From Candidatus Levyibacteriota bacterium (GTDB taxonomy: Bacteria; Patescibacteriota; Microgenomatia; Levybacterales; UBA12049), in contig JAYRIM010000014.1 of the NCBI GenBank assembly GCA_041906785.1, positions 3,215-67,214 on the forward strand: DNA of 64,000 nucleotides, read 5' to 3'. Under the pieces are notes generated by a model, which saw only the letters and a list, made by a program, of their open reading frames with translations, did not search any database and had not been told where the DNA came from. The translations under genes and the position numbers were made by a program. Below are positions 2,883 to 61,600 of the stretch, in pieces; positions within the stretch are counted from its first letter, which is position 1; every line of letters begins with the position of its first letter.

Positions 2883-2971
2883 TTTTTTTCTCTTTCATAT
2901 CTATTACAGGGTTTTTAAGCGTATTTAACGCCATAAAGGTATTATTTCCATATAAACGGAGGATATTCTGT

Positions 2972-3772
2972 ATGGTAAGAAAAAAACAAGTGGTTGGCTT
3001 AAAAATGATCAGTTTACAAGATGGGAAAGAAGTTGGGGAAGTAAAAGATGTGATATATGATCCTAAAAAGAAAAAAGTTGAAGCTCTTATAGCTGAAGAA
3101 AAAGGAATTGTTAAAGGATCAAAAGTCGTTCCATTAGATGAAGTTCATACAATCGGCGATGATGCAGTAACTATCGATTCTGAAGAGCGAATGAAACCCT
3201 TATCGAAAGCGCCAGAGCCAGTAACTAAAGCAGCGAAGTTAAGCCAGAAGGTTGAAGAAACAACAATTGTGACTACTGATGGAAAAGAACTGGGAAATAT
3301 AAAAGATGTGTATTTTAATCCTTTAACAGGTGAAGTTGAAGAGTTTGAAATGCTTAAGGTTAACGAGAAAGGAGGCAAATCAAAAAAAAAGAAAGTCATC
3401 CTTTCTGAGGTATTAACAATTGGTGAAGAAGTTACAGTAGTACGAGGATATGGAGAAAATATTTTTCCTTCTCAGTCCGAGGATGTTTCTCAAACAAAAA
3501 AGAACAATCTATTAGAAGGTACTGACACATCGATAACCACTATTAAAAATTTTGAGAGTCTTGTAAATAAATCTCACGATATACAACCCCACTTCACAGA
3601 AGAAGATAAAAAACTTTATGAAAAAATTGTCGCTCCTAGTACAGCTTCTAGTAGTTCTTCTCTTCAAACTTCATCAGGAAAGGGAATTTGGAGAACATTC
3701 CATGATTGGCTAATCGGTCCTACAATTCAAGAGGCTATCAGTCAAATAACAGGCATTCCAAGAAAAATATAA
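2972..3772 (+). CDS. PRC-barrel domain protein (two PRC-like repeats)
   Basis: Repeated ...DGKEVGEVKDVIYDPKKKKVEALI... / ...DGKELGNIKDVYFNPLTGEVEEFEM... motifs; start moved to ATG 2972 which has a GGAGG RBS; the upstream part of the six-frame ORF 2822..2971 is translation of a repeat element. Confidence 0.5.
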   Translation: MVRKKQVVGLKMISLQDGKEVGEVKDVIYDPKKKKVEALIAEEKGIVKGSKVVPLDEVHTIGDDAVTIDSEERMKPLSKAPEPVTKAAKLSQKVEETTIVTTDGKELGNIKDVYFNPLTGEVEEFEMLKVNEKGGKSKKKKVILSEVLTIGEEVTVVRGYGENIFPSQSEDVSQTKKNNLLEGTDTSITTIKNFESLVNKSHDIQPHFTEEDKKLYEKIVAPSTASSSSSLQTSSGKGIWRTFHDWLIGPTIQEAISQITGIPRKI

Positions 3773-3880
3773 CCTGAGCAGCCACGTCCGTCGGTGTAAA
3801 TATTTGTTTTTACGTTAACCTGACCATTCGCTTAAAAGCGAAGACTTTCTCCTGAAAGGAGAATTTTATTAGGAGATTTG

Positions 3881-5035
3881 CTATTTTATTGGTAGTTCTA
3901 CAGTAAATTCTGATCCTTTATTTTCTTTGCTTTTAATCCGTATTTTTCCTCCATGGGCTATGACTATTTGATTTGATATATATAAGCCAATTCCTAATCC
4001 TTTAATATCACCATTTTGTCCGCCTCTCTCAAATAGGTTAAAGATTTTTTCCTGTTGGTTCTTCGGTATTCCCAATCCTTGATCCTTAACACTAATTCTA
4101 GCGACTGAACCTTCTTTCTGCAGGGAAACATGTATTGGTTTTCCCTGACCGTATTTCATCGCGTTTGAAATAAGATTTGCAATAACTTGCTCAATACGGA
4201 CCCTATCAACTTTCACAACTATTGAAGTTTTTGCATCAGATGTAATTTTCGTATGCTCATTTTCAGCTTTTTCTATAAAACGTTTGACGACATCTTGCAT
4301 GATTTCTTTTAAATCATGCTTATCCAATTCAAGTTCTAATCGACCTGTTCTCATTAATGAAACATTTAATAAATCATTTATCATTTTCGATAGCCGTTTG
4401 GTTTGGGTCTCAGCACTTTCTAACATATCCAGAAGGTTTTGGACAGAAAAATTTGCTAGTGAAACGTGACGGACATTATGTAATGCTGTTTGTAATTTTA
4501 ATAGCGTGGTAGTTAGTGGTGTTTTTAATTCGTGAGATGCTATTGATATGAATTCATCTCTAGCTCGAATTTCCTTTTCTGCTTGTCTTTTTTCACGTAT
4601 GAGACGTTCGATTTCTTCTTCAAATTCTTTTTCTCTTTTATTAAATAACGAAATTAATTTCGTTTTTTTACTGGTTGAAATAATCCATGTAATCACAAAT
4701 CCTGTGATTGAAAACACAATTAGTTCTATAATTGCCAGTATAGTTGTGTTTAAAAGAGGATAAGAAAAAAGTATCAAAAAAATTATTGCGTATATTGTTA
4801 GAAATATGCCAGTTTTTTTATTTCCTAAAAATGTAGCAAAAGCGATTGAAATAAGAAAAAGAAGTAAGAGTAGGTGATAAAACTGAATTTCTCTAAAAAC
4901 CGAACTGATAATTACCATAAATATACTAATGAAGAGAGTGAAACCGTATTGGAAAAGATAGCTATCAAACTTTTCACGAGGAAACCAAATATATGAGGAG
5001 AAATATTTTTGGATGGTATTTTCTTTTTTTACCAT
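3881..5035 (-). CDS. membrane sensor histidine kinase
   Basis: Multi-TM N-terminus, H-box SIASHELKTPLTT, HATPase_c G-boxes (GLGIGLYISNQIV). Confidence 0.8.
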   Translation of the reverse strand: MVKKENTIQKYFSSYIWFPREKFDSYLFQYGFTLFISIFMVIISSVFREIQFYHLLLLLFLISIAFATFLGNKKTGIFLTIYAIIFLILFSYPLLNTTILAIIELIVFSITGFVITWIISTSKKTKLISLFNKREKEFEEEIERLIREKRQAEKEIRARDEFISIASHELKTPLTTTLLKLQTALHNVRHVSLANFSVQNLLDMLESAETQTKRLSKMINDLLNVSLMRTGRLELELDKHDLKEIMQDVVKRFIEKAENEHTKITSDAKTSIVVKVDRVRIEQVIANLISNAMKYGQGKPIHVSLQKEGSVARISVKDQGLGIPKNQQEKIFNLFERGGQNGDIKGLGIGLYISNQIVIAHGGKIRIKSKENKGSEFTVELPIK

Positions 5036-17189: not shown

Positions 17190-17549
17190 TTAAGCGACAG
17201 TGGAAATACTAAGTTGTTTTTCTATTCGGCCCAGGCGTTTCCGTTGATCCATTTGTTCTCGGTCGAGCAAATCAAGCATACTATCTTGGTCCTTTTTTAG
17301 TGATTTCAACATTTTACTGTGACCTTCAAGCGTTCTGGTATGACCTTCAAGTATTCTGGTGTGACTTTCCAATATTCTCGTATGACTTTCAAGTGTTCTT
17401 GTATGGCTTTCAAGTAACTTAGTATGGTTTCCAAGGATTTTAGTATGACTTTCAAGAATTTTTCCATGATTTTCTAGCTGTTTATGAATAGGCGCTAATT
17501 TTTCGTCAAGTAATTCTGAAATTTGTTGGAGATCATTGGTGTTTCTCAT
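17190..17549 (-). CDS. coiled-coil protein with ~7-8 tandem heptad repeats (LESHTRI)
   Basis: Protein contains ILESHTKILGNHTKLLESHTRTLESHTRILESHTRILEGHTRTLEGHSKML; the DNA has a 21-nt tandem repeat. Confidence 0.5.
   Translation of the reverse strand: MRNTNDLQQISELLDEKLAPIHKQLENHGKILESHTKILGNHTKLLESHTRTLESHTRILESHTRILEGHTRTLEGHSKMLKSLKKDQDSMLDLLDREQMDQRKRLGRIEKQLSISTVA
17305..17470. repeat. intragenic 21-nt tandem repeat (~7-8 units) encoding LESHTRI heptads
   Basis: ttcaagtattctggtgtgactttccaatattctcgtatgactttcaagtgttcttgtatggctttcaag... Confidence 0.75.
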
Positions 17550-17867
17550 TGTTTACTAGTTGTAGCATAGATTCTTATATTTTGTCTATAAGGATGTTAA
17601 GCTTTTGAGCTTTATTCTTATTGATTCTATGTCCCATAGTTTGACAAGCGCTTAAGAGTTTGATATTCTTCACATGACATTTGAAGAGATATAAGGCGTT
17701 TGCGCTGAAATATCTTTTCTTATGTTATTTTTTTCTCTTGCACATTGATAGTTCGTTACTGTAATACCGCCAGTTAGGAAAACAATAAGCTTTTTGATAA
17801 CTTGTTTCTCTTACGGGCGGTATTATTAACATGGGCTCAAGGAGCCCTCTCACGAAAGGAGTTCGCG

Positions 17868-18494
17868 ATGTTGTCTTCAGCTTTCTCGCTCGTAAGTCAT
17901 CTCAAGGAGAAGGCTCGGCGGGTCCGTAAGACGTCCTGGCACTTCAAGGTCGTCGAGAGCCTTTGGGGCCACCGAGTGTGGCATACAAAGGCATGCAAGT
18001 ACTGGTGGATAATGGTGCCGACGTCACTCTTCGTCCTGGGACTGGTGTACCTGATCGGCGGCATCATGTACACGGTAGGCTTTCTCCTCGGCTACGCGCC
18101 GAGGCCGGAAAGCAAGAAGTACAGCTCGAGCGACGATCGGATGTTCATGCCGCACGGCGAGTTGCCTAGTGGCCGGAAATGGCCGTGGTATATCCAGCCG
18201 TGGTTTATGCTGGCTGTCTTCGCGGTTTTCTGGTTTGCCGTGAGTTTCCCGGAAACCTTCTGGTGGACAGTTGGCTGGATCGTGAAGATTGTGGTCGTGG
18301 TCGTCCTGGTCGGCTTCGTCGTCTACTTGCTCGGGAAGGGCTGGAACCTTCCTGGCTTCCGCGCCGGCCGACGGACGGTCCGCCGGCAGATCTCGGGAGT
18401 CTGGGACAAGGTCTGTCCCAGTCTAGTCGTCGTTCAGAACGGCGACGATCGAGTAAACGATACTCACGCCGAAGAGTACGACTACGACGACTAG
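17868..18494 (+). CDS. hypothetical membrane protein encoded on a GC-rich segment
   Basis: ATG 17868 preceded by an aaaggag RBS (the six-frame ORF starts at TTG 17802); 3-4 TM helices; GC visibly far above flanks; own terminator. Confidence 0.45.
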   Translation: MLSSAFSLVSHLKEKARRVRKTSWHFKVVESLWGHRVWHTKACKYWWIMVPTSLFVLGLVYLIGGIMYTVGFLLGYAPRPESKKYSSSDDRMFMPHGELPSGRKWPWYIQPWFMLAVFAVFWFAVSFPETFWWTVGWIVKIVVVVVLVGFVVYLLGKGWNLPGFRAGRRTVRRQISGVWDKVCPSLVVVQNGDDRVNDTHAEEYDYDD

Positions 18495-19937: not shown

Positions 19938-20648
19938 ATGTCTACTATAACTGTCGAGCACGGCACACAGGAACTCCATATCTATCGGTTTGGAACGCAG
20001 GGCAAAGCGAAGCCTGTCCAGCAGTACTTTCCCGTTGAAGCAGAAACGGAGTTGAGACTTCATACTGGTCCCGGTACCGCTCGGACAGCTACGTTCAGTC
20101 TCACACCAGAGGCTGACTTTGCGAGATTGGTACTCAAGAAACGTATCGGTCGCACACCCGTGGCCGAAAGGAAAGTTCAAAAGGAGGAACTGGATGCAGG
20201 GGTAACGTCAGTAACAGTGAGGTTTGAAACTCAGCCGACTGAGAGAGGGCAAGTAGCTCAACCGATCACTAGCGTCAGATCAGTTCCTAAGAAGGGGGAC
20301 CCCTTCAGATTGGTCAGCATTCGAACACTCGCCGGCCTGCTTCAAAGAGCAGATGTTGATGGGGGTGAATATCGGGAAGTACAGGTTATTGACCTCGTGG
20401 CGCGGAACGTTGATGCCGAAGAGGATGACAGCATTGAGGCACAAGTGCGTCGTTTTGCCGAAGCAGGCGGAAGCCTGGCAGAACTAGCGCGCCGTGTAGT
20501 TCGGTATGCCACGCGGGGTCGCTCGGTTGACTCAGCGACCTTTGAGACAGAAGTAGGTGCCTTCGAAAAAACACTCACAGCTATGGTGGCACCAGAACAG
20601 CCGTCACTCGTCAAATCAGTACTGCGGCGCTTCAAGATTGGCAAGTAG
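19938..20648 (+). CDS. hypothetical protein encoded on a GC-rich segment
   Basis: 236-aa ORF, GC-rich codon usage unlike neighbours, no recognisable motif. Confidence 0.4.
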   Translation: MSTITVEHGTQELHIYRFGTQGKAKPVQQYFPVEAETELRLHTGPGTARTATFSLTPEADFARLVLKKRIGRTPVAERKVQKEELDAGVTSVTVRFETQPTERGQVAQPITSVRSVPKKGDPFRLVSIRTLAGLLQRADVDGGEYREVQVIDLVARNVDAEEDDSIEAQVRRFAEAGGSLAELARRVVRYATRGRSVDSATFETEVGAFEKTLTAMVAPEQPSLVKSVLRRFKIGK

Positions 20649-21489: not shown

Positions 21490-21674
21490 TCAGTTAGTTT
21501 TTACTTCTTTTAAACTTATTCTGTTATAACAGAATTTATTTTAGTGGGATTTTAAGTCTCCAATTTCGAGTTTCCAGTTTCCATTTAGTAACGATTTATC
21601 AATTTATTATGAAAATAATTGGAAAATGGAAATTGGCAATTCGAAAATTTAATTACGTGCTATACTAGGCGCGT

Positions 21675-21932
21675 ATGCATGACACCTATATCTCTGCAAG
21701 TGAACTAGCTGAATATGTGTATTGCCAGTGCTGCTGGATGGATAAACTTGAAGGCTTACAGAAAGAAACTCTAGAAATGGAGAAAGGAAAAAGTGCACAT
21801 GATTCTATCTACCGCTGGGTATTTCTTTTCCTTCGAGCTCGATTAGCTATCATTTTTCTCATATTAGTTAGTGCCATTATTTTCTTAGCACAATTTATTT
21901 TAGTATTTATCTATCATACAAGCCTATGGTAA
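21675..21932 (+). CDS. Cas4-like nuclease N-terminal fragment (Cys motif) fused to a hydrophobic segment
   Basis: ISASELAEYVYCQCCW resembles the Cas4/DUF83 N-terminus; overlaps the next ORF by 7 nt in another frame. Confidence 0.4.
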   Translation: MHDTYISASELAEYVYCQCCWMDKLEGLQKETLEMEKGKSAHDSIYRWVFLFLRARLAIIFLILVSAIIFLAQFILVFIYHTSLW

Positions 21933-22414
21933 TACTTATAGTTTTTTTCATATTATTTATCCTGGGAATTAGTGCACTTTTTACTATTACTTTCGCAAGG
22001 AGAAATTTCCTTCCTGAAGGAGAAATCATGTATGCTGACTCATCAGCCAAACCTGCTGGCATTCTGCATTCGACTACCATTCCTATAATGGGAAGACCAG
22101 ACTATGTGTTAAAGAAAGATGAATTTTATATTCCAGTAGAAGTGAAAACGGGGAAGACTCCGAAAACACCATACCCGAATCACGTCGCACAGCTATATGC
22201 ATATTGTTTTCTCGTCGAAGAACGATATCATGTTCGTCCGCCATATGGCGTTATCCGGGACCCTGAGAAAGAATTTATGCTGGCATTTCCTGAGCAGACT
22301 GAGAATTACTTAATTCACACGGTTAATGAGATTATAGAAAAGAAAAAAGGAGAATTGTCGAGAAAAGAATTAAAAAGGATGTGTAAGGAATGTAGGGAAC
22401 ATATAAAAGAATAA
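21926..22414 (+). CDS. Cas4/RecB-like PD-(D/E)XK nuclease core with N-terminal TM helix
   Basis: GRPDYV...IPVEVKTGK (D...EVK), QLYAYCFLVEE (QxxxY), C-terminal CKEC. Confidence 0.55.
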   Translation: MVILIVFFILFILGISALFTITFARRNFLPEGEIMYADSSAKPAGILHSTTIPIMGRPDYVLKKDEFYIPVEVKTGKTPKTPYPNHVAQLYAYCFLVEERYHVRPPYGVIRDPEKEFMLAFPEQTENYLIHTVNEIIEKKKGELSRKELKRMCKECREHIKE

Positions 22415-22709: not shown

Positions 22710-23700
22710 TTTGCTCATTACTATATTGCTAGCGGTCACTAGCACTTCTCATATCAGAACAAGACTCGAAACACAGGAGTTACTACTATGCGAGATCCAG
22801 AGCGTGATCCATTCGAAATCGTTGATAAGACGCTTGCGTTTGCTCAACGAATCATATCAGCGTCCGGCCAGAAAGGGTTGTTCACGACAGTGCTTGTCGT
22901 AGATCCTCGGGGCCGAGAACTGGTCGGTAAGAAAGCATGGGCGGGTAGCCCACCCACAGATCCGAAGCCGCGTCCACCGCACATCGGCCCGGCCAAGTTG
23001 GCGGAGATTCTGCTATATGGCGACCTTGACTTGCCGCTAGAGATGAGTCCTATAAGTGGGTTACTGTCAACCGGCTTCATGGGCGGTGTTCGACGACTCG
23101 TCCATGACTACCTCGTGGACATCCACTTTCTCACATCGTGCAGTGGGTGGTCGCAGGAGAGCGACGCGATGATGGCGCTCCTTCTCAACTACTGCATGAC
23201 ATACCCGATCCAACTGCACCACGTAGGATTTGGGTACAAGACAGAGGAGGATGCGCGGGCCGCTATCGAGGCCGACGAGAGGTACTACGGTGTCACGGGT
23301 CTCTATCATCCCGTGGATGACCATCACCGGGTTTACATTCTCACACCCGCTGGTCATTATCGCGAACACCAGTGGGGCGAGGACGTTAAGCCTGGCAACG
23401 TCCACTGGGACTTTTGGACACCAGACATCTCGCCTGAGTTCGTTATCAACTTCATTGCCCGGCAATTGGGGAGGCGTGTCCTGGAGACCAACATGTGGGA
23501 CCACTCTCCCAATTCGCCTGTTGGCGTCGTATGGACAGACAACGACGGGAGACCCTTCGGCGTGATGACCAGGAAAGAGTGGTGGAACGTTTCCACCGCG
23601 TAAGTATCAACCTGAGAAGTGTGACCGCACTAGCTTGCGGGATGGGGCGAGTTTAGGTGTAACAGCCTAGCTCGTCCCTCCCAACAGCTAAACTATAGAG
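22710..23700. other. GC-rich segment 3 (putative acquired cassette)
   Basis: Elevated GC over the 271-aa ORF; a family-1 MITE and decamer repeats lie at its left edge. Confidence 0.45.
22788..23603 (+). CDS. hypothetical protein encoded on a GC-rich segment
   Basis: 271-aa ORF with GC-rich codon usage, no recognisable motif. Confidence 0.4.
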   Translation: MRDPERDPFEIVDKTLAFAQRIISASGQKGLFTTVLVVDPRGRELVGKKAWAGSPPTDPKPRPPHIGPAKLAEILLYGDLDLPLEMSPISGLLSTGFMGGVRRLVHDYLVDIHFLTSCSGWSQESDAMMALLLNYCMTYPIQLHHVGFGYKTEEDARAAIEADERYYGVTGLYHPVDDHHRVYILTPAGHYREHQWGEDVKPGNVHWDFWTPDISPEFVINFIARQLGRRVLETNMWDHSPNSPVGVVWTDNDGRPFGVMTRKEWWNVSTA

Positions 23701-38623: not shown

Positions 38624-38634
38624 ATAATTTTGAA

Positions 38635-38682
38635 GTTACAAGTTACAAGTTACAAGTTACAAGTTACAAGTTACAAGTTATG
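38635..38682. repeat. GTTACAA heptamer microsatellite (~6.5 units) in the fic/rpsF divergent intergenic region
   Basis: gttacaagttacaagttacaagttacaagttacaagttacaagtta. Confidence 0.8.
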
Positions 38683-40039: not shown

Positions 40040-40135
40040 TAGGAATTGAGAATTGAAAGTTGAGAATTGAGAAATTTATAAGGAATTTTTCAATAACTCT
40101 CAACTCTCCTTTCTCAACTCTCAATTCTTGCCATG
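40040..40135. repeat. long imperfect palindrome of TTGAGAAT units between rpsR and the following gene
   Basis: GAGAATTGAAAGTTGAGAATTGAGAAAT ... CTCTCAACTCTCCTTTCTCAACTCTCAATTC. Confidence 0.5.
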
Positions 40136-46057: not shown

Positions 46058-46200
46058 TCAGTTCTCAGTTTTCAGTTGTCGGTTTTCAGATTGCAGTTTA
46101 TCGGTTATTAGTCTTTCAGTTTTTAAATATCTGACAAACTGAAAATGGATAGACTGGTAGCTGACGCTGATAACCGAAAACTGATTACGGATTCTGCCTC
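46057..46200. repeat. CAGTTnTC(A/G)G decamer-family element arranged as a long imperfect palindrome
   Basis: Direct decamer variants (CAGTTCTCAG TTTTCAGTTGTCGG TTTTCAG...) followed by the inverted set (CTGATAACCGAAAACTGA). Confidence 0.55.
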
Positions 46201-47387: not shown

Positions 47388-49070
47388 CTACGTAAGATAT
47401 TGAGAGCTACTCGTATATATTTTTACTATATCTGCATCTGACAATAAACGTATCTTCTTCATGTTTTTCGTGTCCTTAAGATATCGATGGATAATTTTAT
47501 ACATATCGAGGTCAAAAGTATAATTAGTCGATAAATCCGAAGTGCGTAACCCGAAGTTCGAAAAAGAATCTAACTTTGAATTTTGTGCACTTAAAACGTT
47601 TTGATCATTCGGCATTGCTTCGAGTTTCGATAGTATAATTTCTGATGTATCTTCGTTACCTTCTTGATCGATTTTAACACTACCTATAAAGCACCATTTA
47701 TCGATGATAAAATGTTCTGTTATGCCTGTGATTTCATTTTTTTCATCGATAATAATTGGGCCAGTGAATGGCCAAGGTTTTATTTTCGTTTTACTAAATG
47801 CAGTGACGAATCTCGTATTGTAGAACAATGCTGATTCTTTACCAACGCATGCCCCTTTACATTTGTTTAGTCTGTAAGCGAAACAGGCGGTTGACGTTTT
47901 TTCTAGTCCGATTAGTTTCTCACACAATTGATATTCTTTCGAAACATCAGCCAAAAAATTCTTGGCTTGTTTTCTGGATTTAAAGAGGCCTAGTATTGTT
48001 CCTATTTCTCCTGAAGTTATTGTTTGTACAGGAAATAGTTCTATTCCATCATATCCTTTCGTGTTCGTTACTTTTCTTAAAGCGATAAGCTCATGTTTTA
48101 CCCTCAACATCCTATTATAGATAGGAAGTTTTTGCTTTATAAGGGTTGCTTCGAGAAAGAGTGCTCCAAGTTCGCCTGCAGTAACGATAGTTTCAATATG
48201 TTCAACTTGTTGCGCTATAGACATTTCTTTCGTTGATCGAATATCTCCTGAAAAATGTGATAAAACACGATCACGAATGTTTTTACTTTTACCGATATAT
48301 AAAGGAACAGGTTGTAAGTTGTCAGTTCTAGGTTGTGGGTTATCAGTAACAGAACTTTGACTGGTTATTCCATTTACATACTGATGACTGATGACTGACG
48401 ACTGACTACCATACATAATATACACCCCTGGCAATTCGGGAAGAGAATCTATGAGTGACCAAGACAATTTAGTAGGTACGGTTGGTCTTCGTAATGCTAG
48501 ATTTACAGCTTTAAGAAACTCATCTTCAGAAAAGGTTTTTTTTGCATATTGGTAAAAATGCCATAACGCTGACGCATCGTCAAAAGCACGATGTCGCTGT
48601 TCACAGTGAATCCCGCAGCGTTGAATAACAGCATCCAGATTATGATGAGATGCCGTAGGGAAGAGAGAACGAGAAAGTTTCACTGTACAGAGTTGCCTTG
48701 CCTGAAATGGTATATTTTCTCGAAGGAAGGAATGTTTTAAAAAACTATAATCAAATCGTGCATTATGCGCGACAAAAATGCATTCATTGAGAAGTGTGCG
48801 TATTTCATCAGCTACTTCTTGAAATGTAGGTTTATTTTCGAGATCGCGTTGAGTTATACCTGTCAACAGTTCGATTTCAGGAGGGAGATGAGTTTGGGGG
48901 TTAATAAGTGATTGGTATGTCTGTACAAGCTTATTTCCTTCAACTCGGAGAATTCCTATTTCGATAATCCTTCCGTAGGAAGCAGAAGTACCAGTAGTCT
49001 CAATATCGACAAAAGCAAGTCTATCAGGCAGCATGTGTTTGATTTTAACAAGCTTGATTTTGTCCTGCAA
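47388..49070 (-). CDS. DnaQ-like 3'-5' exonuclease fused to a GIY-YIG (UvrC/Cho-like) nuclease domain
   Basis: FVDIETTG exo I motif, HNARFD, later GVYIMYG...LYIGKSKNIRDRVLSHF GIY-YIG motif interrupted by ~28 extra residues. Confidence 0.7.
   Translation of the reverse strand: MQDKIKLVKIKHMLPDRLAFVDIETTGTSASYGRIIEIGILRVEGNKLVQTYQSLINPQTHLPPEIELLTGITQRDLENKPTFQEVADEIRTLLNECIFVAHNARFDYSFLKHSFLRENIPFQARQLCTVKLSRSLFPTASHHNLDAVIQRCGIHCEQRHRAFDDASALWHFYQYAKKTFSEDEFLKAVNLALRRPTVPTKLSWSLIDSLPELPGVYIMYGSQSSVISHQYVNGITSQSSVTDNPQPRTDNLQPVPLYIGKSKNIRDRVLSHFSGDIRSTKEMSIAQQVEHIETIVTAGELGALFLEATLIKQKLPIYNRMLRVKHELIALRKVTNTKGYDGIELFPVQTITSGEIGTILGLFKSRKQAKNFLADVSKEYQLCEKLIGLEKTSTACFAYRLNKCKGACVGKESALFYNTRFVTAFSKTKIKPWPFTGPIIIDEKNEITGITEHFIIDKWCFIGSVKIDQEGNEDTSEIILSKLEAMPNDQNVLSAQNSKLDSFSNFGLRTSDLSTNYTFDLDMYKIIHRYLKDTKNMKKIRLLSDADIVKIYTSSSQYLT
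48311..48410. repeat. decamer-family repeat embedded in frame in the exonuclease/GIY-YIG gene
   Basis: GTTGTCAGTTCTAGGTTGTGGGTTATCAGTAACAG ... CTGATGACTGATGACTGACGACTGAC; encodes the extra residues between the GIY and YIG motifs. Confidence 0.5.
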
Positions 49071-58383: not shown

Positions 58384-59499
58384 CTATAACTCCTTAAAAT
58401 CCCTTGGGGTATCTGTTAACTGTTTAAGTGTATTATTTTCTATTACAAATAAGTCTTCAATTCTCACTCCTCCATAGTTTGGAATATAGATTCCCGGTTC
58501 TATAGAAAACACCATTCCTTCAGTTAGTATTTGTTTTGACACAGGTGAAAGAGTAGGGGCTTCATGAACTTGTAACCCAATACCATGACCTAGAGAATGG
58601 GGGATGGAGGGGTAGTCTTGGGAGAGAATATGATTTCTTGCGGCGGCATCTATATTTGATGCTATTATCTCCTTAGCTCCAGAGTTGTCGGTTATCAGTT
58701 GTCGGTTGTCAGCTAGATGCAAATGAATATAATCAATTGCTTTTTGTTGGGCTTCTCGAACAACATTATATATGCGTTTTTGTTCATCAGTTGCTTTGCC
58801 AAAAAATAGTGTTCTCGTCATATCTGAACAATAAGATTCAACTTTCACGCCAAAATCCAGTAACACCAGGTCGCTAGTCGCAAGTCGTTTGTCGCCTGTT
58901 TGGTGGTGGGGGATGGCGGCGTTTGATCCAAATGCCACAATTGGATCGAACGATAGTTCTGCTCCTTGTTCTAAAATAAAGATTTTCAGTTTTTTTGCTA
59001 ACTCTTTTTCAGTTATACCAGGTTTTATTTTTGTAAGAATGAAATTAAATCCCAAATCTCCAATACGACATGCTTCTGCTATTTTTTCAATTTCTTTATG
59101 TTCTTTCTGGATGCGAAGCGTGTGTAATTCTGCTGGTTTAGTATCAAGTACTATTTCTTGAATTTTCTTTAATTCATAAACAGTTATATCTTTTTCTTCT
59201 ATCCCTAATGTTTGTATATTGTTTTGTTCGCATAATTCAGTAAACACTTTCTGAAACTGATTTGTTGAAGATAGCTCGATAAGCTTTAAATGTCCTAAAG
59301 CATGTATTGCTGTTGTATATCGGCCGTCAGTGAGAACATATGCTTCTTTTGCTGTTATAACGAGATATGCTTCTCGTTCTTCAACAGAAAAGTTTGTATA
59401 TCCACTTAGATACGATATATTCGCAACAGAGGTGATAAGAAACGCATCAAGTTTCTGTTTGTCTAATAAGCGACGAACTTTTTCGATTCTATTATGCAT
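58384..59499 (-). CDS. pepP: Xaa-Pro aminopeptidase (M24B)
   Basis: Pita-bread fold metal ligands ...DFG..., HSLGHGIGLQVHE, C-terminal ...GVRIEDL. Confidence 0.85.
   Translation of the reverse strand: MHNRIEKVRRLLDKQKLDAFLITSVANISYLSGYTNFSVEEREAYLVITAKEAYVLTDGRYTTAIHALGHLKLIELSSTNQFQKVFTELCEQNNIQTLGIEEKDITVYELKKIQEIVLDTKPAELHTLRIQKEHKEIEKIAEACRIGDLGFNFILTKIKPGITEKELAKKLKIFILEQGAELSFDPIVAFGSNAAIPHHQTGDKRLATSDLVLLDFGVKVESYCSDMTRTLFFGKATDEQKRIYNVVREAQQKAIDYIHLHLADNRQLITDNSGAKEIIASNIDAAARNHILSQDYPSIPHSLGHGIGLQVHEAPTLSPVSKQILTEGMVFSIEPGIYIPNYGGVRIEDLFVIENNTLKQLTDTPRDFKEL
58679..58712. repeat. decamer-family repeat embedded in frame in pepP
   Basis: AGTTGTCGGTTATCAGTTGTCGGTTGTCAG encodes ...ADNRQLITDN... 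Confidence 0.45.
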
Positions 59500-61470: not shown

Positions 61471-61600
61471 ATTCAGTTATCAGTTTTCGGTTATCAGTTA
61501 TCGGAATTTAGGTCACCAGTTATCAGGTTGCCAGTCTGATAAACAGAAAACCGTTCAACTAGTATCTGAAAACAGACAACTGAAGACTGATAACTGAACT
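61471..61600. repeat. CAGTTnTC(A/G)G decamer-family element (direct then inverted units) upstream of dnaB
   Basis: CAGTTATCAGTTTTCGGTTATCAGTTATCGG ... CTGAAAACAGACAACTGAAGACTGATAACTGAAC. Confidence 0.55.

Follow-up and report, generated by a model that had tools for sequence, protein, structure and literature searches.

A pair of overlapping genes in a 64,000-nucleotide (nt) stretch of DNA from a Candidatus Levyibacteriota bacterium (hereafter the window) encodes, with high probability, a genuine two-gene, membrane-anchored nuclease of the Cas4 family. The upstream open reading frame (ORF1, small subunit) carries the Cas4 N-terminal module (N-module) followed by a hydrophobic segment, and the downstream one (ORF2, large subunit) carries another hydrophobic segment followed by the nuclease core (Table 1). 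The division into two genes is real and is conserved among relatives. The pair aligns colinearly with single-chain forms of the same protein, the catalytic residues are conserved, and the candidate metal ligands covary between the two chains. From these observations we infer the membrane topology, the assembly of the two proteins into a heterodimer, a metal cluster bridging them, and DNase activity.

A preliminary description of the locus, made from the sequence of the window, had reported the two ORFs in different frames with a 7-nt overlap, exactly as we find them, and had offered a frameshifted pseudogene, a programmed frameshift or a novel membrane-tethered two-piece nuclease as explanations. 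The last of these was borne out as far as the two-piece membrane form is concerned. The word "novel" has to be qualified, because such proteins are already in databases under Cas4 names and solo-Cas4 proteins were noted in 2017.

Division of the Cas4 modules between two ORFs

When the two ORFs were compared with TIGR00372, the NCBIfam cas4 profile, amino acids (aa) 6-46 of ORF1 aligned with profile positions 1-43 (expectation value, E, 0.0019) and aa 46-157 of ORF2 with positions 60-173 (E 1.1e-13; 51.5 bits, where the strict equivalog cut-off is 65). The part matched by ORF1 is exactly what the match of ORF2 misses, and together they account for positions 1-43 and 60-173 of the 180 in the profile. 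Between positions 43 and 60 the pair has an insert of about 85 residues, nearly all hydrophobic, with the gene boundary in its middle. ORF2 also passed the Pfam Cas_Cas4 model (27.6 bits; gathering score 22.7), the PADLOC Cas4 models matched both ORF1 (E 2.6e-4) and ORF2 (E 2.8e-14), and a family-specific hidden Markov model (HMM) of the N-module matched ORF1 with an E of 7.7e-22. These searches divide one Cas4 domain between the two ORFs. The ORF1 protein begins with MHDTYISASELAEYVYCQCCW and is very hydrophobic in its C-terminal part; the motif quoted earlier for this region, ISASELAEYVYCQCCW, is present. ORF2 runs from a hydrophobic start to GRPDYV, IPVEVKTGK, QLYAYCFLVEE and CKEC. An exact look-up of its product retrieved no contig.

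The concatenation of ORF1 and ORF2, which served as the query in the search for relatives, aligned end to end with 25 single-chain relatives. Across these and the window, S7, A8, Y16, C17, W21, G27, G38 and H42 of the small subunit are invariant, as are D38, G56-R-P-D59-Y, E72-V-K74, Q89, Y93-C94, C153 and C156 of the large subunit (D123, GRPDY141-145, E157, V158, K159, Q174, Y178, C179, C238 and C241 in the numbering of the concatenation). D59, E72, K74, Q89 and Y93 of ORF2 and G38 and H42 of ORF1 are thus the same in 26 family members. By alignment, the invariant residues are the PD-(D/E)XK motifs and the N- and C-terminal cysteines of Cas4.

An AlphaFold2 model of the concatenation had a moderate mean predicted local distance difference test score (73.9), rising to about 90 in the core. 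It contains long helices at 33-79 and 85-111, and the break between them coincides with the gene boundary at 85/86. In a Foldseek search the best match of this model was the type I-C Cas4 8D3L (E 5e-6, probability 1.0, template modelling score 0.54-0.56), and further matches were the Cas4-Cas1 fusion 7MI4, MGME1, Dna2, AdnAB, SSO0001 (4IC1), Pcal_0546 (4R5Q) and ACE1. A sequence-profile search of the PDB also retrieved the 8D3L Cas4 (E 3e-6), with the C-terminal CxxCx5C of the family aligned with its cysteines; the family pattern YxYC...W...G..H aligned more weakly with the N-terminal FQFC...W...GQHLH of 8D3L. In SSO0001, the catalytic metal is held by a His located upstream of the core together with the core Asp, an acidic residue and a Lys (PMC13621843). 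The weak N-terminal alignment suggests that H42 of the small subunit might be the equivalent of this His, and if so, the active site would be built from both chains.

Conservation of the split among relatives

Relatives of the concatenated query were of two types. The first consists of many single chains, 266-355 aa long, whose alignments span 77-98% of the concatenation. Those with a named source are from archaea of the Thermoplasmatota and Poseidoniia, and their labels are Cas4, Dna2/Cas4 or PD-(D/E)XK nuclease. The second, made up of the closest relatives (40-59% identical), consists of proteins of 156-181 aa that all correspond to ORF2 alone. On the contigs of these short relatives that were examined, a small gene lies just 5' of the large one, and a homologue of ORF1 was present wherever DNA was available. 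With L-numbers and P0004 as our labels for the relative loci and contigs, the pairs are 85 + 164 aa in L001 (59% identical, with a 7-nt overlap like that of the window), 82 + 178 aa in L003, 78 + 158 aa in L006 and 78 + 156 aa on the P0004 contig (each with a 1-nt gap), and 93 + 173 aa in L004, a locus of 60% guanine plus cytosine (GC), with a 5-nt gap per the called genes.

To survey the arrangement more widely, one genome per species was scanned, which gave 291 relatives, and the best 80 loci were classified by matching the N-module HMM and a core HMM to stop-to-stop ORFs. Both modules were in one ORF at 33 loci, all archaeal. The N-module was in a separate ORF directly upstream at 35 loci, all bacterial, and at nine more, all from Chloroflexota bacteria, the small gene and the large gene were separated by a gene of about 210 aa with HEAT-like repeats, the three lying tightly packed on the same strand. 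The remaining three loci were cut by contig ends and were not informative. Two genes were thus found in 44 of 44 informative bacterial loci and one chain in 33 of 33 informative archaeal loci among the best 80 of the 291, and the stop codon of the small gene always fell at the turn of the membrane hairpin described below.

The junction itself is variable. Among 39 adjacent pairs (the window, L003, L004, L006 and the survey loci), the genes overlap by 7 nt (two pairs), 4 nt (ten) or 1 nt (four), or are separated by gaps of 1 nt (five), 2 nt (three), 3-5 nt (four) or more, up to 31 nt and beyond, and all three relative frames occur. The ATGGTAA junction of the window recurs in L009, and other relatives have ATGA, TGATG or gaps of 1-5 nt. 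Overlaps and gaps as short as these are what translationally coupled cistrons ordinarily show.

In a neighbour-joining tree of the core domain, one bipartition parts all 34 archaeal from all 50 bacterial sequences, so that a single fission, or a single fusion, suffices to explain the two forms. Comparison of the window with L001 gave a ratio of nonsynonymous to synonymous substitution rates (dN/dS) of 0.215 for the small gene; for the large gene the proportions of nonsynonymous and synonymous differences were 0.24 and 0.87, the latter being saturated. These values indicate purifying selection on both halves.

A profile search of 1.84 billion cluster representatives (clusters at 50% identity) returned 212 representatives at E <= 1e-30. 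The single chains among them group at lengths of about 265-285, 320-360 and 500-600 aa, and the large subunits at about 160-190 aa. A single-chain form with four membrane helices was observed directly, and the longest chains, of 500-600 aa, would have more. The clade is abundant in marine Poseidoniia, Thermoplasmatota, Chloroflexota and bacteria from the candidate phyla radiation (CPR), and one sister locus belongs to a metagenome-assembled genome (MAG) of Roizmanbacteria. The MAGs of L009, L010, L012, L017, L022 and L030 are titled "uncultured Gammaproteobacteria", and these titles are probably placeholders or errors, given that the window is closest to L009 and has a DnaB much like those of Levybacteria and Patescibacteria.

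The nine Chloroflexota loci with an intervening gene are L015, L028, L031, L038, L042, L044, L050, L051 and L070. The intervening gene gave weak matches to HEAT repeats; in L050, the order is 2933-3253 / 3266-3898 / 3905-4444. Its product may be a third component in that Chloroflexota clade. The small ORF of L051 apparently has no membrane helix, possibly owing to a frameshift or an assembly error.

The predicted membrane hairpin

The transmembrane segment described earlier for each ORF was readily recovered in hydropathy analysis: the Kyte-Doolittle mean over 19 residues reached 3.07 at about aa 55-80 of ORF1 and 3.15 at aa 1-24 of ORF2, and ranged from 2.0 to 3.5 in 34 pairs. The hydrophobic segment is C-terminal in the small protein, giving it a tail-anchored look, and N-terminal in the large one. 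In the same 34 pairs, the flanks that adjoin the soluble domains had 0.21 and 0.26 Lys plus Arg per residue, the opposite flanks had 0.13 and 0.02, and the residues beyond the helices had a median total of 5. By the positive-inside rule, this distribution suggests that the soluble parts are cytoplasmic and only the chain ends lie outside. Both soluble parts are accordingly predicted to be anchored to the cytoplasmic face by a helical hairpin; the cytoplasm is also the side on which an Fe-S cluster could be inserted.

All the relatives that were examined have the hairpin, the archaeal single chains included, so that it is ancestral to the family and a recent insertion is not supported. The preliminary description had taken the DNA between the two modules for an AT-rich, repetitive insertion. 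It is AT-rich, with a GC fraction that compares with 0.39-0.40 on either side (Table 1), because 35 of its 60 codons encode Ile, Leu or Phe; its repeats are short and at chance level, and its sharing by intact homologues, which an alignment had been proposed to reveal, speaks against an insertion.

Candidate metal ligands in the two chains

Cas4 proteins have an Fe-S module of four conserved cysteines, one N-terminal and three in a C-terminal CX2CX5C motif (PMC5704561). This canonical set was found at 64 loci of the family. In the window, L009, L003 and L010, the third Cys of the C-terminal motif is gone (CKEC, CKLC, CRRC) and the small subunit has gained two cysteines (YCQCCW or YCECCW), so that the candidates in the window are C17, C19 and C20 in the small subunit and C153, C156 and H159 in the large one (C153-K-E-C156-R-E-H159). 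L030 has two cysteines in each chain (YCRQCFW with CTKC), and six loci have one Cys together with CxHxxxH. The exceptional loci thus retain about four candidate ligands in another distribution. A loss in one chain that is matched by a gain in the other is the pattern expected of a shared site, like the iron staple that Cas4, AddB and Dna2 form within a single chain, and this shift of candidate ligands between polypeptides, which we regard as the strongest indirect argument for assembly, argues for a cluster that bridges the subunits.

The gene junction and its upstream region

ORF1 ends in CTA TGG TAA and ORF2 begins with ATG GTA ATA in the -1 frame. No slippery heptamer of the form X XXY YYZ, for which the preliminary description had advised a search, was found before the ORF1 stop or elsewhere in the overlap zone. 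From its sequence, the 7-nt overlap is a translational-coupling junction rather than a frameshift site, and the two genes are probably co-transcribed and translationally coupled.

No Shine-Dalgarno sequence precedes the small-subunit gene in the window, L001, L003 or L006. In all four, an extended -10-like box ends 5-8 nt short of the small-gene ATG: the one listed in Table 1, TATACT at about 4733-4741 in L001, TGcTATAAA at about 83-91 in L003 and TGgTATAAT at about 2339-2347 in L006. The box is possibly the promoter of a leaderless two-gene transcript, and its recurrence suggests that such a transcript is conserved across divergent relatives. A simple consensus promoter scan around the locus gave hits at chance level and did not list the TGcTATACT box, a terminator scan around the locus found none, and Rfam and tRNA scans of the window gave nothing useful on regulation or taxonomy. 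Between the DUF1761 gene and the small-subunit gene lies an imperfect 34-nt inverted repeat (21564-21597 / 21613-21646; 76% complementary, 15-nt spacer), which could be an operator or an RNA structure.

Table 1. Features of the two-gene locus, in coordinates of the window
Feature	Position	Strand	Length or content	Basis or remark
Extended -10-like box	21659..21667	+	TGcTATACT	Ends 7 nt (8 bases) before the small-gene ATG
ORF1, small subunit gene	21675..21932	+	85 aa	ORF call, N-module HMM, hydropathy
Hairpin-coding DNA (two membrane helices and short external turn)	21825..22000	+	GC 0.29	Gene break at hairpin tip
ORF1/ORF2 overlap	21926..21932	+	ATGGTAA, 7 nt	ORF2 start within the last codons and stop of ORF1
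ORF2, large subunit gene	21926..22414	+	162 aa	ORF call, Cas4 profiles

Alternative explanations for the two ORFs

Two overlapping ORFs in different frames could be the remains of a single Cas4-like gene, disrupted by mutation or by an assembly or sequencing error. A single indel would be enough to fuse them, the -1 frame being open for about 54 nt (18 codons) 5' of the ORF2 start, and the region is rich in A/T runs. This explanation of the preliminary description is nevertheless extremely improbable, because the same layout recurs in every informative bacterial locus, in independent assemblies of 38-60% GC, with junctions that vary, with a whole gene in between at nine loci, with both halves under purifying selection and with the small-gene stop always at the hairpin turn. 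Alternatively, the ribosome might shift to the -1 frame or bypass the junction, giving one fused membrane nuclease. The 7-nt overlap and its flanks are indeed conserved between the window and L001 and L009, but the conservation with L009 is explained by close relatedness, and among the relatives the two frames can be related by +1 or +2 or be in register, the gap can reach tens of nucleotides, and a whole gene can intervene, all of which is incompatible with a conserved recoding signal. With no slippery heptamer in the overlap zone either, we consider recoding very improbable. Taken together, the conserved split, the varied junctions, the purifying selection and the missing heptamer lead us to exclude sequencing error, a pseudogene and a programmed frameshift.

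It could also be that the small ORF encodes an unrelated membrane protein whose likeness to Cas4 is due to chance, and that the large ORF is a truncated, stand-alone or inactive Cas4 remnant. The generic Cas4 profiles match ORF1 weakly (E of about 1e-3), and the N-module profile does not retrieve Cas4 from the PDB. The residue-for-residue alignment with the N-termini of the single chains, in which S, A, Y, C, W, G and H are invariant, makes this reading hardly credible, as do the match to the family HMM, the fit of the ORF1 match into the gap left by ORF2 in the Cas4 profile, and the covariation between the number of cysteines in the small ORF and the loss of Cys from the large one. The two-gene nuclease is therefore the explanation that we retain.

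Genomic context and probable role

In the window, the neighbours of the pair are genes for MsrB, a DUF1761 protein, an AI-2E transporter and a SpoU methyltransferase, together with GC-rich orphan ORFs; the DUF1761 and AI-2E genes are syntenic in L001. The window is chromosomal and bacterial, as judged from DnaB, HisS, a PAS histidine kinase and a C-terminal processing protease. Its DnaB shares 75-76% identity with proteins that carry the names Candidatus Levybacteria and Patescibacteria group, and the organism is therefore probably a Microgenomates-like CPR bacterium. The reported lack of cas genes and of a CRISPR array was confirmed over the 64 kb: no ORF tested matched a cas HMM other than Cas4, no array-like repeats were detected, and the defence-system HMMs gave nothing in the window or among the neighbours beyond the Cas4 models. 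No cas genes were found among the neighbours of the relatives, and no viral copies came up when 2.9 million IMG/VR contigs were scanned by pattern.

Outside the clade of the window, the neighbourhood can be conserved. At about 20 Anaerolineae/Chloroflexota loci, the genes downstream of the pair encode NAD kinase, a membrane protein with a B-box and RecN, with SSB or RecQ nearby at a few of them, and in Thermoplasmata the neighbours are metabolic, with MtnA-like and aconitase-X genes upstream. Neither the NAD kinase/RecN nor the MtnA-like/aconitase-X linkage extends to the clade of the window, where the neighbours are heterogeneous.

A dedicated anti-phage or anti-plasmid nuclease, which would destroy incoming DNA where it crosses the membrane, was considered because the Cas4 family is tied to immunity and a membrane anchor would put a DNase where DNA enters. 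One relative adjoins the R subunit of a type I restriction system and another a DNA methylase, and the window locus lies amid variable, GC-rich orphan genes. This role is unlikely in our judgement: the neighbours carry no defence-system HMM matches, viral contigs carry no copies, the neighbours conserved within Anaerolineae and Thermoplasmata are housekeeping genes, and the core tree follows the divide between archaea and bacteria, which suggests mostly vertical descent instead of the mobility of defence islands. Since the neighbours are heterogeneous and the context shows no sign of defence, CRISPR or viruses, we read the pair, on sequence grounds, as a self-contained, largely vertically inherited housekeeping nuclease, and favour the end-processing or degradation of DNA at the membrane over dedicated defence. 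The most likely activity is metal-dependent cleavage or resection of DNA at the membrane or entering through it. A part in repair, or in breaking down imported DNA for salvage, is more probable than one in dedicated defence, and our confidence in any particular biological role is low.

A model of the two-subunit nuclease

In the ancestral form, retained in archaea, a single chain would consist of the Cas4 N-module, a membrane hairpin of two, four or more helices, the nuclease core and the C-terminal Cys motif. In bacteria, the break in the gene would lie at the hairpin's external turn. The tail-anchored small subunit would then provide the first cysteine(s) of the metal cluster and the G..H motif, and the large subunit, starting with the second membrane helix, would provide D59, E72, K74, QxxxY and the C-terminal Cys/His residues. 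The two helices would pair in the membrane with only about five residues outside, the soluble parts would rebuild the Cas4 fold on the cytoplasmic face, and the metal site (Fe-S or Zn) would be ligated by residues of both chains. Such a nuclease would work outside CRISPR as a solo-Cas4.

A stronger form of this model, in which the heterodimer is obligate, is put forward tentatively and may well be wrong. Here neither chain would be functional alone: the catalytic His and Cys ligand(s) of the 85-aa tail-anchored subunit would meet the D/ExK core by helix pairing, and the metal cluster would be shared. If so, the DNase would exist only at the membrane, and its assembly could be gated by the state of the membrane or by DNA translocation, for example where CPR bacteria degrade imported DNA to salvage its nucleotides, or where injected foreign DNA is destroyed. 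It would also be the first membrane-integral member of the Cas4/RecB group and the first iron staple between subunits.

Several points weigh against the two-gene nuclease as we describe it. The heterodimer, the bridging cluster and the composite active site are proposed from homology, from covariation and from a model in which the artificially joined chains were folded as a monomer. By sequence alone, the link of the N-module to canonical Cas4 is weak (E 2.6e-4 to 1.9e-3), and the N-module profile on its own retrieved no Cas4 from PDB sequences, with a chance hit to HIV gp160 at E 1; the link draws on colinearity, on the fold model and on the generic Cas4 HMMs. As just two cysteines are present in the C-terminal motif of the window protein, the assignment of the metal as Fe-S or Zn stays putative. 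The rule that all bacterial forms are split and all archaeal forms fused comes from the best 80 of 291 genome hits and from MAG labels, some of which are apparently wrong. The neighbourhoods of the relatives surveyed contain no consistent functional partner gene, and the NAD kinase/RecN linkage in Anaerolineae may be lineage synteny only, giving a weak hint to DNA repair.

Comparison with known Cas4-family nucleases

Solo-Cas4 proteins are very common in archaea and present in many bacteria, and their roles are poorly understood. The pair belongs to the Cas4 family by profile, motifs and predicted fold, and its context points to solo-Cas4. With solo-Cas4 (COG1468 / PF01930 DUF83) it shares the D, ExK and QxxxY core, the N- and C-terminal cysteines and the absence of cas neighbours. 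Solo-Cas4 proteins were reported to be monophyletic in many Chloroflexi and CPR phyla including Roizmanbacteria (Hudaiberdiev et al. 2017, PMC5704561), and the clades of that study (Chloroflexi, CPR such as Roizmanbacteria, and many archaea) match the distribution of the present clade. The pair differs from solo-Cas4 in the hairpin between N-module and core, in the bacterial division into two genes at this hairpin and, in the clade of the window, in the replacement of the third C-terminal Cys by extra cysteines in the other polypeptide. The words "transmembrane" and "split" are absent from Hudaiberdiev et al. (PMC5704561). The M. mazei enzyme, the only solo-Cas4 studied biochemically that we found, is a soluble oligomer, and neither "membrane" nor "transmembrane" is used in the paper on it (PMC12501428). 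Literature searches for a membrane-anchored, two-gene or split Cas4 returned nothing relevant. While the proteins are already in databases as Cas4, Dna2/Cas4 or PD-(D/E)XK nucleases, the hairpin architecture and the bacterial split appear to be undescribed.

CRISPR Cas4 proteins (8D3L, 7MI4, 4IC1, 4R5Q) are the best fold and sequence matches, with catalytic residues and Cys motif aligned, but the identity is only 13-27%, and the present pair is membrane-anchored, made of two chains and found without Cas1, Cas2 or an array. The iron-staple nucleases RecB, AddB, Dna2 and MGME1 have the same fold (MGME1, Dna2 and AdnAB were matched), and in them cysteines before and after the core clamp the domain around a cluster; they are soluble single chains or domains of large helicase-nucleases, whereas the staple proposed here would join two small membrane proteins. 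In other naturally split enzymes, adjacent cistrons (ATGA, TGATG or short gaps) likewise encode parts of what is one chain elsewhere. Here the break falls in an extracytoplasmic hairpin turn, and assembly would use helix-helix pairing and a shared metal site. To the best of our knowledge, no example of a split at a membrane-hairpin turn has been described in the Cas4 family.

A Cas4 protein tethered to the inner face of the membrane would point to DNA transactions at the membrane, which are undescribed for this family. The bacterial two-gene form would be a clean natural experiment in protein fission, cut at the tip of a membrane hairpin, with catalytic and metal-binding residues divided between two chains and ligands moved from one to the other. 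It also bears on annotation: in the loci examined, the partner gene of 78-93 aa carries no family annotation, and the large gene is labelled "CRISPR-associated Cas4" despite the lack of a CRISPR context.

Other features of the window

The GC-rich ORFs around the pair (17802-18494, 19938-20648 and 22788-23603) have 53-57% GC in a genome of 38% GC, and GC-rich ORFs likewise flank the DUF1761/nuclease pair region of L009 (2170-2859 and 5192-5473). ORF 22788-23603 found no relative but itself among 5.8 billion proteins. For ORF 19938-20648, the closest relative has only a weak homologue at the corresponding position (30% over 69 aa; 52% GC in a 39% GC genome). Fast-evolving GC-rich genes are thus located at conserved positions in both genomes. 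Upstream of one GC-rich ORF, a tandem array with a 21-nt period lies at 17304-17471 (about 6.7 copies, consensus TGACTTTCAAGTATTCTAGTA).

The window also has numerous short heptamer repeats in tandem, for example AAGTTAC in 6.9 copies (100% identical) and TCAGTTT in nine. Their sites include 38633-38680, 46058-46123, 40043-40128, 48380-48405, 58683-58712 and 61472-61504, and they lie between or at the edges of ORFs of at least 150 aa, apart from 48380-48405, which is inside ORF 47388-49070. These repeats resemble the short tandem repeats known from some cyanobacteria. For this reason, and because of some best hits of the kinase and the protease, a cyanobacterial origin was considered; it was rejected on the evidence of DnaB, which places the genome in the CPR. 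ORF 47388-49070, on the minus strand, encodes 559 aa that combine a DnaQ-type DEDD exonuclease with a Cho/UvrC-like GIY-YIG excinuclease and are unrelated to the pair.

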